From the NCBI GenBank assembly GCA_016840425.1, contig JAEOSI010000167.1, forward strand, positions 1 through 5,194: DNA of 5,194 nucleotides, given 5' to 3'. The translations under genes were made by a program, and so were the position numbers. Under the pieces are notes generated by a model. That model ran no database searches and had not been told where the DNA came from. It saw only the letters and a program-made list of their open reading frames with translations. The stretch comes from Candidatus Wukongarchaeum yapensis. Lineage in GTDB: Archaea; Asgardarchaeota; Wukongarchaeia; Wukongarchaeales; Wukongarchaeaceae. This document shows, piece after piece, positions 2,700 to 5,194 of the stretch (position 1 is the first letter of the stretch; each line of letters begins with the position of its first letter).

Positions 2700-2792
2700 A
2701 CCAACTTCCCATCTAAAAAGATTCCTATTTAGCTTATGTAGTTAGACATAAAAAAGTTAATGTAATGTAAAAATAATTGTTATAATCTAAAT

Positions 2793-3287
2793 TTACTTTT
2801 CTTCGATTAAAACCCCTTCCCATAAGGTTTCTGAAGACTCTTTTAAGACTCCCTCCGTTAAAAAATAATGCCGCCTACTTAGGAGATACCAAAATATTAA
2901 CAGGTTTATGCCGAGACTCGTCATCTGCCAGTAAAAGATTTTATCTATTTCAGGATTTAAGGACGAGTCTAGGATTTGAAATATCATATAAGTTAATCGG
3001 GCTATAGCGGGGAGTAATACTATGGCTAAAACAACATTATATGCCCAATATTTCCTCGAAAATAGGCCCATAGATAAAAATACTAGGATCACGCCTGCTA
3101 CGATAAGAATTATGAAATTAGTTTCAGCATCACTTCCCGTAAAAAGTTCTGAAGCAGGATAGTCTTCAGGAAACGAAAAATAACCTGCTAAAAGAATCAA
3201 GCCTGCAACTATGCCCAAAATGCCTCCTAGCAAGAATAAAAAGGAAAGTATAGATATGCCAACAGGACGGTTAGATGACAATAACAA
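2793..3287 (-). CDS. Hypothetical 4-TM integral membrane protein (RPxG...GL...WA...YL...YF archaeal type, DUF2127-like)
   Basis: Four hydrophobic stretches (~aa 9-37, 58-77, 81-104, 117-136), N-terminal RPVG and an acidic C-terminal tail. The start is TTG. The SD GGAGG (3289-3293) is only 1 nt from the TTG at 3287 but 7 nt from the in-frame TTG at 3281, so the true start is probably 3281. Confidence 0.85.
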   Translation of the reverse strand: MLLSSNRPVGISILSFLFLLGGILGIVAGLILLAGYFSFPEDYPASELFTGSDAETNFIILIVAGVILVFLSMGLFSRKYWAYNVVLAIVLLPAIARLTYMIFQILDSSLNPEIDKIFYWQMTSLGINLLIFWYLLSRRHYFLTEGVLKESSETLWEGVLIEEK

Positions 3288-3510
3288 GCCTCCAATAATT
3301 GTACATGAATTAAAAAATTATTCTTAGAAGAGATGAAAAACTTAAAAGGTAAAAAGTTGAAAGAATATGATCTTTCGTTAGCTTACTTATTAAATTTTAT
3401 TGCTTCTAAAATATTTAAACTATTGTTTGAATGATGGAACATATTAGGACTTTTTACGCTTCTTTATGATATTAACCGAATGAAAAGGCGATTAAAAAAT
3501 AGGGGCAAAT

Positions 3511-3519: not shown

Positions 3520-3569
3520 GGGCAGCTTTCTTGTTTTTAACTTTGTCGGCGGGAAGTCTCCCTGCGAAA

Positions 3570-3594
3570 CAGTCTATCCGCGTGTTAAATGCTT
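3570..3594. repeat. Left TIR of MITE (preceded by TSD GAAA 3566-3569)
   Basis: 20/25 ungapped identity to the reverse complement of 3851-3875; the first 7 nt are identical. Confidence 0.85.
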
Positions 3595-3609
3595 GGTTGG
3601 TTAAATAGA

Positions 3610-3843
3610 TCACTTCCTTATGAAATAGGTTTTTTCAGGGGTTCGTCGGAGCGGTGGTTTGTCGGGGAAGTCTATTGTCCGTCTCAACAAGCGGAAGAGA
3701 AGAGCTGCTTTACTTCTATTCTGATAGTGTTCGATGGCCTTCTTGAAATCGTGACGCCCTCTATGATCGGTGGAAAAAAGGGATAAGTTGCCCGTTACGA
3801 CGGCATAACTCCACTTACTTCAACTTTTCCCAAAAACAACCAT
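3610..3843 (-). pseudogene. Possible degenerate IS4-superfamily transposase fragment inside the MITE
   Basis: The frame reads MVVFGKS*SKWSYAVVTGNLSLFSTDHRGRHDFKKAIEHYQNRSKAALLFRLLRRTIDFPDKPPLRRTPEKTYFIRK*. YQNRSKAALLFRLLR has the spacing of Y-(2)-R-(3)-E-(3)-R/(6)-K, but Ala replaces the catalytic Glu. The resemblance is weak. Confidence 0.35.
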
Positions 3844-3850
3844 CTAAAAA

Positions 3851-3875
3851 AAACACTTAAAACACGGGTAGACTG
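3851..3875. repeat. Right TIR of MITE (followed by TSD GAAA 3876-3879)
   Basis: Reverse complement is CAGTCTACCCGTGTTTTAAGTGTTT. Confidence 0.85.
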
Positions 3876-3904
3876 GAAAGCTGGGGGATGAAAGCCGAAT
3901 AATA

Positions 3905-3918
3905 ACAAGATATTTATA
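3905..3918 (+). promoter_or_regulatory. Putative archaeal BRE/TATA promoter driving the omega-RNA (former tnpB promoter)
   Basis: Purine-rich ACAAGATA is followed by TTTATA (3913-3918), about 20-25 nt upstream of the start of the structured region and of ATG 3936. Confidence 0.5.
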
Positions 3919-3935
3919 GTCATAATAATAACAAT

Positions 3936-4060
3936 ATGAGAGCGTAGGGTAGGGACTACCCGAATTTACGCCTGCGGAGACAGAACCTCTACCGGGAGAA
4001 ATCTCGGCAAGTTCAGTCGTTGAACCAGGAAGCTCCCTGCGACTGCTGGAAGTAGTTCAC
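3936..4060 (+). pseudogene. tnpB: tnpB remnant (possible first codons plus 3' tail only)
   Basis: 3944-4060 translates as VG*GLPEFTPAETEPLPGEISASSVVEPGSSLRLLEVVH, the typical low-complexity C-terminal tail that overlaps the TnpB right-end RNA. ATG AGA GCG TA at 3936 resembles a TnpB start (MRAY...). All nuclease domains are absent. Confidence 0.6.
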
Positions 4061-4080
4061 TCATTCTTCCTCTTCTTATT
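3940..4080 (+). ncRNA. TnpB omega-RNA (reRNA): ~120-nt scaffold ending at TCAC 4060 plus flank-derived guide UCAUUCUUCCUCUUCU...
   Basis: Stems seen by eye: CGTAGG(3943-48)/CCTGCG(3971-76); GGGTAG-gga-CTACCC (3947-3961); CCGGGA-GAAA-TCTCGG (3992-4007); GTTCA-gtcgt-TGAAC (4011-4025), with alternative pairing of TGAAC to the terminal GTTCA (4055-59); and the right-end hairpin 4033-4052. It ends in GTAGTTCAC, typical of IS605/IS1341 right ends. The 5' and 3' limits are estimates. Confidence 0.75.
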
Positions 4081-4309
4081 TTTTGCTGAACAGTTTATGT
4101 TTTGGTTTTACGACGCAGTTGGGGCATACACGCATTGTTCTGAGTCGGCGATGGGGATAGTCGTCCACGTAAACCGCCATCCATCTAGCACAGTCTGAGC
4201 AAACGTATTTTCCACAGTAACGACAGCGGTAGTGCTCTTCGTTAGGAACCTCATTTTTTCCGCATATTTCGCATAAAACCTTCTTCGGGTCGTCTGATGA
4301 TTTACTCAA
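4076..4309 (-). CDS. 77-aa 8-Cys zinc-finger protein, FYVE-like / DUF2180-like
   Basis: Four CxxC pairs (C13/16, C29/32, C37/40, C62/65), with HYRCRYCGKYVCSDC and MRVCPNC. TTG start with a strong SD (GGAGGT, 6-nt spacer). It lies 34 nt downstream of the CBS gene. Confidence 0.9.
   Translation of the reverse strand: MSKSSDDPKKVLCEICGKNEVPNEEHYRCRYCGKYVCSDCARWMAVYVDDYPHRRLRTMRVCPNCVVKPKHKLFSKK
4079..4084 (+). terminator. Possible oligo(T) terminator bounding the omega-RNA guide
   Basis: T6 run 18 nt downstream of the right end, preceded by a pyrimidine-rich tract. It coincides with the antisense of the Lys codons ending the zinc-finger gene. Confidence 0.3.
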
Positions 4310-4315
4310 TTTTTT

Positions 4316-4321
4316 ACCTCC
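4316..4321 (-). promoter_or_regulatory. Shine-Dalgarno of zinc-finger gene
   Basis: The minus strand reads GGAGGT-aaaaaa-TTG. Confidence 0.7.
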
Positions 4322-4343
4322 ATTTACTGTTTTTTAAGGGGAT

Positions 4344-5192
4344 TTATTTTTTGGTTAGACGCTGCATAGCCACTTTGAGTAGGTCGCGCTCAGTTATTAT
4401 GCCCACTAGTTTTGAGTCGTCTATTACTAAGAGACAACCGATGCCTTTATCATGCATCTTTGCCGCGGCTTCTTTTACTGATACCTCTGAATTAACAGTT
4501 ATCAAGATTTTTGCCATAATTTCGTTTACCTGTTTATAAAGCACTTTTTCGTAATTTCCTTCTTTTAATCCTTTTATGGTCTCAGGGTCATTGAGATATT
4601 TTAGGATGTCACTAGCAGTAATGAGGCCGGCAAGTTTTCCTTCATCGTTAACTGCTGGTATTCTGCGAATATTAGCTTCAACCATCTTTTTTAAACAATC
4701 AAAAAGGTTTGATTTGTCGTTTACTGTGATGACGTTTTTTGTCATGTAGTCTGATACTTTTTCTTCAACCGGAAGTTCTGCTACTGAGGAGATTACATCG
4801 CGTTCTGTTATAATACCTCCGAGACGGCATTCTTCATCTAAAAACACCGGTAAGCAACCGATATTATTTTCTACCATTATTTTTGAGGCTTCATCTACCG
4901 TAGAACGTATCGAGATTGAAATAAAGTCAGGGGTCATAATTTCTGTGAGAGGAGTTTCTAGAAACTCTTTTGCAAAGGAGGTTTTTCCTTTCTCTATATC
5001 TTCAGAAACTTTCTTGGCAAATTCCCTCATAATATCGCGGAAAGTTATCATTCCGACAAACTTTTTATCTTTGACTACGGGTAGTCTGCGAAACCCGTTT
5101 ACATCCATTATGCAGATTGCTTGTTCTACTGTTTGTCCTTCTTCCGCGATGAAAACCTCTTTTGTAGCATATTTGAAAACTTCTAAACTCAT
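4344..5192 (-). CDS. CBS-domain protein with four CBS motifs (two Bateman modules; adenylate-sensing, MJ1225/AMPK-gamma-like architecture)
   Basis: Four repeats: GFRRLPVV..GMITFRDI, GCLPV..GIITERDV, IRRIPAV..GLITASDI and GIGCLLV..GIITERDL. 282 aa. The ATG is 2 nt from the window edge, so upstream context cannot be checked. Confidence 0.95.
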   Translation of the reverse strand: MSLEVFKYATKEVFIAEEGQTVEQAICIMDVNGFRRLPVVKDKKFVGMITFRDIMREFAKKVSEDIEKGKTSFAKEFLETPLTEIMTPDFISISIRSTVDEASKIMVENNIGCLPVFLDEECRLGGIITERDVISSVAELPVEEKVSDYMTKNVITVNDKSNLFDCLKKMVEANIRRIPAVNDEGKLAGLITASDILKYLNDPETIKGLKEGNYEKVLYKQVNEIMAKILITVNSEVSVKEAAAKMHDKGIGCLLVIDDSKLVGIITERDLLKVAMQRLTKK

Positions 5193-5194
5193 CT

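Follow-up and report, generated by a model that had tools for sequence, protein, structure and literature searches.

What does a short, protein-less repeat in the genome of an Asgard archaeon do if it carries the guide-RNA part of a transposon-encoded nuclease system, but neither the nuclease nor a transposase? The question is raised by positions 3541-4084 of contig JAEOSI010000167.1 of Candidatus Wukongarchaeum yapensis. This contig, referred to here as the window, is 5.2 kb (5,194 nucleotides) long and is contig C175 of the source assembly G000 (2.16 Mb in 277 contigs, 92% complete; C numbers denote contigs of this assembly unless another is named). The region had been read, in what is called here the original prediction, as a stand-alone, promoter-driven cassette for the omega-RNA of TnpB. 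Positions 3541-4060 derive from an IS200/IS605-family (IS1341/TnpB-type) element. The derivative is non-autonomous, lacks protein genes, and has inserted directly 3' of the motif TTTAA, and it is rather probable that this mini-element specifies an omega-RNA transcribed from its own promoter and usable in trans by a TnpB encoded elsewhere. Without a nested insert, the mini-element is ~214 bp long and consists of a left-end hairpin, a TTTATA box, a 116-nt scaffold, and a TTCAC end. The parts of the region are as follows:

3536..3540 (+): TTTAA, the target or transposon-adjacent motif (TAM), host DNA outside the element; present left of most copies and retained in the empty site of the related genome G001
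3541..3569 (+): left end, 5' half of the left-end hairpin up to the GAAA loop, from alignment with 13 other copies
3570..3875 (+): nested insert of 306 bp with 22-bp inverted ends (3570-3591 and 3854-3875) and a GAAA duplication (3566-3569 and 3876-3879)
3876..3899 (+): left end, 3' half of the hairpin (GAAAGCTGGGGGATGAAAGCCGAA), contiguous with 3541-3569 in uninterrupted copies
3900..3944 (+): AT-rich spacer with the TATA-like box TTTATA (3913-3918), a putative promoter with a predicted transcript start at ~3940-3943
3945..4060 (+): omega-RNA scaffold, 116 nt with five stems and the TTCAC end at 4056-4060, recognized by identity to tnpB 3' ends, a covariance model, and covariation
3947-3952/3956-3961 (+): stem S1
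3971-3974/4026-4029 (+): stem S2
3979-3986/4011-4018 (+): stem S3
3992-3997/4002-4007 (+): stem S4
4032-4040/4045-4053 (+): stem S5, which is both the right-end hairpin and the guide-proximal stem, and contains the C4035-A4050 mismatch
4061..4084 (+): putative flank-derived guide (TCATTCTTCCTCTTCTTA) followed by a T6 run (4079-4084) as putative terminator, both host DNA and both assigned by analogy with the ISDra2/TnpB paradigm

The limits of the element are exactly those first proposed, 3541 and 4060, as is evident from the copies sharing its right end and from an empty site. All 26 aligned copies from the same genome end in GTAGTTCAC, and their flanks diverge immediately afterwards. On the left, 12 of 14 aligned short copies begin directly behind TTTAA, the exceptions being C268 with TTTTA and C201 with an additional A; the motif is also found left of the copies in C143, C5, C137, and C232. 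The empty-site allele that had been predicted is present in G001 (Ca. Hodarchaeota DZ1B.339), a genome of the same genus, in which TTTAA is joined to TCATTCTTCC. Contig C15 of G001 is 85% identical to window positions 2700-3504 and 90% identical to 4061-5194, both flanks abut, and its junction, CTTGTTTTTAA followed directly by TCATTCTTCCTCTTCTTC, corresponds to window position 3540 fused to 4061 with neither duplication nor scar. Insertion of this kind, scarless and 3' of a short conserved motif, is a hallmark of IS200/IS605 transposition. Both the sequence of the element itself and the G001 empty site show that its ends are asymmetric, with no terminal inverted repeats and no target duplication; instead, subterminal imperfect hairpins with related stems are located on the same strand at both ends, the left one with the 306-bp insert in its loop and the right one with a single C-A mismatch. 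TTTAA is the experimentally demonstrated TAM of an archaeal TnpB, SisTnpB1 (10.1101/2023.03.06.531077). The absence of tnpA and tnpB from the element was borne out, since the only open reading frames (ORFs) of at least 40 aa in 3541-4060 are three (49, 65, and 42 aa) contained in or overlapping the nested insert; in the C253 copy, two deletions disrupt the region corresponding to the 65-aa ORF.

A DNA search of the same genome with 3541-4084 gave 36 matches that can be divided into three classes. In the first, 3945-4060 is 82-91% identical to 14 loci, 10 of them directly behind a match to the TnpB zinc-ribbon (PF07282); in the full-length copies the tnpB ORF extends ~100 nt into the scaffold segment and stops ~16 nt short of its end. 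The second class comprises about a dozen loci matching 3876-4060 together with 3541-3569 but lacking the middle part, i.e., protein-less elements of 200-215 bp, and in the third the middle part itself, 3570-3875, is repeated nowhere but in C253 and, in truncated form, in C121. The genome contains at least 13 protein-less copies, whose flanks are unrelated. All short copies have the same spacer/scaffold junction and so go back, on the simplest history, to a single internal deletion in an element that carried tnpB. Two subfamilies can be distinguished among them: type A (the window copy and C268) with the full tnpB-type scaffold, and type B (C253, C88, C168, C160, C177, two copies in C77, and C147) with a shortened central stem, C201 being an intermediate with the type A stem 1. 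It is also worth mentioning that two elements, ending at C143:6000 and C5:241, have the tnpB-type left end and TATA box followed by a shared sequence that is not tnpB; it opens with an ATG-led basic peptide and may represent an alternative cargo or a rearranged element.

Of the relatives that were to be sought in the genome, the sister copies of the scaffold and intact tnpB genes were found, but no tnpA with the same ends in this 92%-complete assembly. The assembly contains 31 TnpB zinc-ribbon matches. The cognate TnpB expected in the host is represented by two intact genes, in C59 and C137, each encoding 397 aa with the domains HTH_OrfB, OrfB_IS605, and TNB and with readable RuvC Asp/Glu/Asp motifs; over residues 7-370 both proteins match the ISDra2 TnpB structures 8H1J and 8EXA (E ~1e-43). 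The single intact Y1 tnpA of the assembly (C70:7637-7990) belongs to a different IS605-type element, in which it is followed by a tnpB of another clade, and one further tnpA is a remnant (C117). The left end of the C70 element has the hairpin-GATGAA layout in common with the mini-element, but not the sequence.

At no fewer than 10 loci of the same genome, the segment overlapping the final ~100 nt of tnpB has 86-91% identity to the scaffold (3945-4060). As the original prediction had proposed, a covariance model was built; this model, R1 (125 positions, 31 pairs, five stems), derived from 15 tnpB-type copies, gives the window scaffold 144 bits versus 145-156 bits for the 11 best tnpB-type copies and has strong matches in 27 copies of the same genome and five in G001. 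An R1 copy is located at the tnpB 3' end in 50 of 67 TnpB-homologue loci of other taxa, mostly archaea, and the five-stem fold covaries across these 50 loci. Within the genome 96.6% of alignment cells pair, many of the changes being from G-C to G-U. In the 50-locus alignment (A4), which was fitted to the R1 model so that its pairing counts are inflated, 28 of the 31 pairs have changed on both sides, pairing reaches 94.8% versus 71% in shuffled and at most 46% in slid controls, and there are 310 cells with a double change versus 81 in shuffled and at most 83 in slid controls. The scaffold is thus, as judged by comparison of sequences rather than by folding energy, a conserved structured RNA family. 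Single-sequence folding of 3940-4084 was not better than that of shuffles (z = -0.49). An Rfam scan of the entire window (E up to 1) gave a single match, a chance CrcZ in the AT-rich spacer, and consequently the scaffold can be assigned to no curated RNA family.

The changes that separate the subfamilies also follow the pairing. In stem 1, where the tnpB-type copies have GGGCAG/CTGCCC, type A has GGGTAG/CTACCC and type B has GGACAG/CTGTCC; in stem 3, the GAAC/GTTC part is replaced by GGAT/ATCC in type B. The C-to-T change of the window copy in stem 1 creates a TAG stop codon in the old tnpB frame (the frame as in C59), so that coding cannot explain the conservation of this stem. One change in the window scaffold is disruptive, namely G to A at 4050, which places C4035 opposite A4050 where the consensus has G; it is the extra C-A mismatch that had been noticed in the right hairpin, and it also occurs in C160 and in one copy of C77 (C77b). 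From this mismatch and from the interruption of the left hairpin, the original prediction had concluded that the hairpins needed for mobility were damaged while the RNA stems looked intact. This distinction does not hold, as the right-end hairpin is itself the guide-proximal RNA stem, and the mismatch affects both.

An alternative is that the stems serve mobility, as signals in single-stranded DNA for a Y1 TnpA, the element being a still-mobile palindrome-associated transposable element (PATE) whose RNA is irrelevant. IS200/IS605 TnpA does work on top-strand hairpins at both ends, the left- and right-end hairpins are similar (CTCCC..GC-loop-GC..GGGAG), and even the insert-bearing left end is still predicted to fold. 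The occurrence of copies at many distinct loci means that the family has been mobile. However, IS608 TnpA requires only a subterminal hairpin and a cleavage site, roughly the last 35-40 nt, whereas here four further covarying stems are kept across 116 nt, and many pairs are G-U (e.g., 39 of 50 at one pair), which are tolerated in RNA but weak in DNA. Moreover, a TnpB-omega-RNA complex has been solved for the homologous ISDra2 system, and the sole intact Y1 tnpA is that of the C70 element. A purely DNA-level role of the stems is accordingly considered improbable.

Upstream of the scaffold, the left end with its TATA-like box is seen, for example, in the uninterrupted copy C268:8872-9084, in which a nested left-end hairpin gives way to an AT-rich spacer holding a TATTTATA box, and this in turn to the scaffold and finally the TTCAC end; the predicted fold of this hairpin is TCGGC...GCCGA around TCTCCC-GC-GAAA-GC-GGGGGA. 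The GATGAA motif behind the left hairpin of the window copy recurs in the tnpB-type left ends of C137, C143, and C5, in which the homologous hairpin is followed by TTTATAAAA at the equivalent place, in C137 upstream of the tnpB start codon. The core ATTTAT is retained in 13 of the 14 protein-less copies, including one from the second species (G001:C79), and is mutated in C147, while the surrounding spacer is variable. The distance from the TATA box to the TAGGG opening stem 1 is 26 nt in the window and 24 nt in G001:C79, in which the spacer is diverged. From its sequence and position, TTTATA may act as an archaeal promoter element, ~25 nt ahead of the transcript start. In two protein-less copies, C144:3474-3746 (-) and C154:4357-4634 (+), the TATA box and the scaffold are set apart by an additional ~70-75 GC-rich bases, and the RNA would be longer by a 5' extension.

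Whether such an RNA is of any use is a separate matter, and the copy in the window may be an inert fossil, i.e., a decaying copy that is not transcribed or whose RNA no TnpB employs, with a scaffold that resembles functional ones solely owing to fairly recent descent from a master copy. Retention of the TATA box across diverged lineages and in the second species is not what would be expected of such a fossil, nor is the pattern of change in the scaffold: among ~8 differences from the tnpB-type consensus, just one breaks a pair, while two form a compensating double change, one converts G-U to G-C, and one A-U to G-U. The family structure of the window copy (-36.3 kcal/mol) also equals in stability the minimum free energy fold (-36.4 kcal/mol). 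Decay is nevertheless visible in the family, since the window copy is interrupted by the nested insert and mispaired in its terminal stem, its sister C268 has two mismatches in stem 4, from which it follows that decay is tolerated, and many tnpB copies in the genome are broken, including most of those belonging to the element's own family; the single deletion junction of the short copies can, in addition, be taken as a founder effect. On balance, an inert fossil is a possibility to be reckoned with, but a doubtful one. The original prediction further took the pattern to be that expected if the RNA function, and not mobility, is being retained. No sign of selection acting on the window copy after the insertion was found, and nothing dates or constrains the later changes.

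The 3' part of the putative RNA would be supplied by the right flank. The sequence at the guide position differs in every copy, and in the empty-site allele of G001 the guide region lies directly beside TTTAA, its first 17 nt being identical to those in the window; the T6 run at 4079-4084 is also already present in that allele. Thus the left end, TATA-like box, multi-stem scaffold, right end, putative flank-derived guide, and T6 listed originally are all present, as seen from the comparison of copies, from R1, and from direct reading. In a scan of the same genome, no guide match with two or fewer mismatches was found directly after TTTAA among the matches listed, the guide being of low complexity and the first dozen matches per length having been inspected. 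A further reading starts from the neighbouring gene: the guide region, 4061-4078, lies just beyond the stop codon (4076-4078) of the minus-strand ORF 4076-4309, so the flank-derived part of the RNA could be antisense to the 3' end of the transcript of this FYVE-like gene and act as a host-directed regulator. This position follows simply from insertion at a TTTAA site, though, and the flanks of the other copies are unrelated, with nothing conserved pointing to such a role, which makes regulation of the neighbour the least probable of the readings considered, and a very improbable one.

The preferred reading, a guide-RNA mini-element served by a TnpB in trans, can be set out as a sequence of events. 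A single internal deletion would have removed nearly all of tnpB and brought the left-end/TATA region against the scaffold, after which the short form spread; the 306-bp inverted-repeat element landed later in the GAAA loop of the left-end hairpin. The archaeal RNA polymerase would start ~25 nt downstream of TTTATA, at ~3940-3943, cross the scaffold into the flank, and halt in the T6 run, yielding an omega-RNA of ~140 nt with 17-20 nt of right-flank host DNA as the guide. An intact 397-aa TnpB, that of C59 or of C137, could load this RNA in trans, and the complex would cut alleles with TTTAA directly followed by a match to the guide (TCATTCTTCCTCTTCT), i.e., the empty or excised site, which, in line with the homing/retention model of Meers et al., would favour retention or re-copying of the element. 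Both components of this scheme have precedents: PATEs encoding omega-RNAs (Meers et al., 10.1101/2023.03.14.532601) and stand-alone omega-RNAs acting in trans (Altae-Tran et al. 2021, as summarised in PMC10691335).

Several points weigh against it. The promoter and the T6 terminator are deduced from sequence, and a word such as TTTATA is frequent in AT-rich DNA. One deletion founder underlies all mini-elements, so that retention of the whole scaffold could reflect inheritance and not selection. The window scaffold is just 86-87% identical to the scaffolds beside the intact tnpB genes of C59 and C137, and its guide-proximal stem with the C-A mismatch is predicted to refold when folded alone; the inflation of the pairing counts mentioned above belongs here as well. 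In work on ISDra2-type systems the omega-RNA comes from the tnpB transcript, and no stand-alone promoter is known for this family. With these points taken into account, use of the mini-element RNA by a TnpB in trans is still judged the likelier course, without great confidence.

The left end of the window copy is interrupted, as had been noted, by an insert of 306 bp that is missing from 11 uninterrupted copies, all with a single GAAA loop. The pattern of its inverted ends gave two matches versus none expected, and the insert has neither a conserved ORF nor an Rfam match. C253:10004-10271 (-) and, in truncated form, C121:838-905 (-) represent the same insert, with position in the loop and orientation unchanged. 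Its three hosts differ in subfamily, the window copy being type A, the C253 copy type B, and the C121 copy a third variant. Searches of the same genome revealed no copies beyond C175, C253, and C121, and those of 30 relatives none at all. In a metagenome scan, the inverted-end pattern matched a C121-like locus, two solo ends, and, by chance, four places in unrelated coding DNA, with no autonomous relative. The host parts of the C253 copy are typical of type B, their left end being identical and their scaffold ~95% identical (counted from the alignment) to those of other type B copies, whereas the C253 insert is only 77-80% identical to that of the window, which argues for independent insertions rather than a single inherited event, recombination being a possible alternative. 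Two other explanations were considered and rejected. Movement of the mini-element and insert as one composite unit is not the simpler reading, because the C253 host parts are type B and young and the inserts far more diverged. Nor is the 306-bp segment ancestral, with the short forms arising by deletion, given its inverted ends, the GAAA duplication, and the tnpB-carrying left ends that lack the segment.

The insert had been regarded as one of the reasons why this copy is immobilised. When the insert-bearing left end is folded as single-stranded DNA, the stems are still predicted to form, prolonged by the inverted ends of the insert itself, and the insert need therefore not abolish the left-end hairpin; this predicted folding, and the recurrence of the same insert in the same loop in C253 and C121, leave the claim of immobilisation unsupported. 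It is tentatively suggested, as a conjecture with less in its favour than against it, that the nested insert is a hyper-parasite specifically targeting the apical GNRA loop of the left-end hairpin of its host IS family. If so, three levels would be nested, i.e., the host, the guide-RNA mini-transposon, and a loop-seeking miniature inverted-repeat transposable element (MITE), and the ends of the nested element may lengthen the hairpin that TnpA would need, and not destroy it.

As for its surroundings, the region 3541-4084 lies in a spacer between two minus-strand genes, one for a DUF7144 membrane protein (2793-3287) and the other for the FYVE-like zinc-finger protein (4076-4309), a cysteine-rich protein of 77 aa whose match to the FYVE zinc-finger family only just passes the cut-off. 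The insertion point is 15 nt beyond the stop codon of the FYVE-like ORF, and a minus-strand T run at ~3492-3500, taken as the terminator of that gene, has been moved 520 bp farther off by the element. The partial minus-strand ORF at the contig edge (3-293) passes the cut-off as a match to Pfam Profilin (E 1.3e-6), a eukaryote-signature protein in keeping with an Asgard host. The assignment of the DNA to an Asgard archaeon was confirmed by this profilin gene and by membership in the same genus as the metagenome-assembled genome of Ca. Hodarchaeota. The 757-aa minus-strand ORF at 426-2699 has no Pfam family and just a sub-threshold match to Baculo_PEP_C. The terminal 144 bases of the contig (5051-5194) are identical to C82:1-144, a probable assembly overlap that would link both contigs.

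The element is therefore an Asgard addition to a known class of protein-less guide-RNA mini-transposons, ordinary for its kind, with the loop-nested insert as its one curious feature. The novelty that had been considered possible is not upheld, as trans-acting stand-alone omega-RNAs and PATE-like omega-RNA elements have been published (PMC10691335; 10.1101/2023.03.14.532601) and the copy is only one of many in its genome; with the concept and, as summarised in the former source, the function in trans already on record, it opens no new question. It does provide a cleanly delimited archaeal example, with an exact empty-site allele, a defined TTTAA TAM, and two candidate TnpB partners in the genome, and the family shows how an internal deletion can fuse a left-end hairpin and a TATA box directly onto a guide-RNA scaffold. 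Its layout of dispersed guide genes for few nuclease genes bears on how guide arrays may have separated from their nucleases.

Among known systems, the stand-alone omega-RNAs and PATE-like elements are the nearest: they share with the mini-element the lack of proteins, the IS200/IS605 ends, the full scaffold with a flank guide, effector-carrying copies with near-identical scaffolds in the genome, and the multiplicity of copies with different guides. The mini-element differs from them in its Asgard host, in the archaeal TATA-like box fused to the scaffold, and in the element nested in its left-end loop, and its function in trans is a predicted one. The insert, in turn, resembles loop-inserting MITEs in its 22-bp terminal inverted repeats, 4-bp GAAA duplication, noncoding character, and insertion at the apex of a palindrome, but it has three copies only, all in one loop of one IS family, and neither an autonomous partner nor a transposase family was found for it. 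The TAM of ISDra2 is TTGAT, unlike the TTTAA found here. In the omega-RNA (reRNA) of ISDra2 TnpB (PDB 8H1J, 8EXA, 8BF8) the scaffold likewise overlaps tnpB at the 3' end of the gene and reaches to the right boundary, with the flank as guide, and the cognate TnpBs of C59 and C137 match the ISDra2 protein; the scaffold described here, however, has no Rfam match, and the window contains the RNA part only. SisTnpB1 of Sulfolobus islandicus is also an archaeal IS200/IS605 TnpB with 5'-TTTAA beside the left end (10.1101/2023.03.06.531077), but it comes from another archaeal phylum and from a tnpB-carrying element, and is likened to the present system by motif and type, not by sequence.

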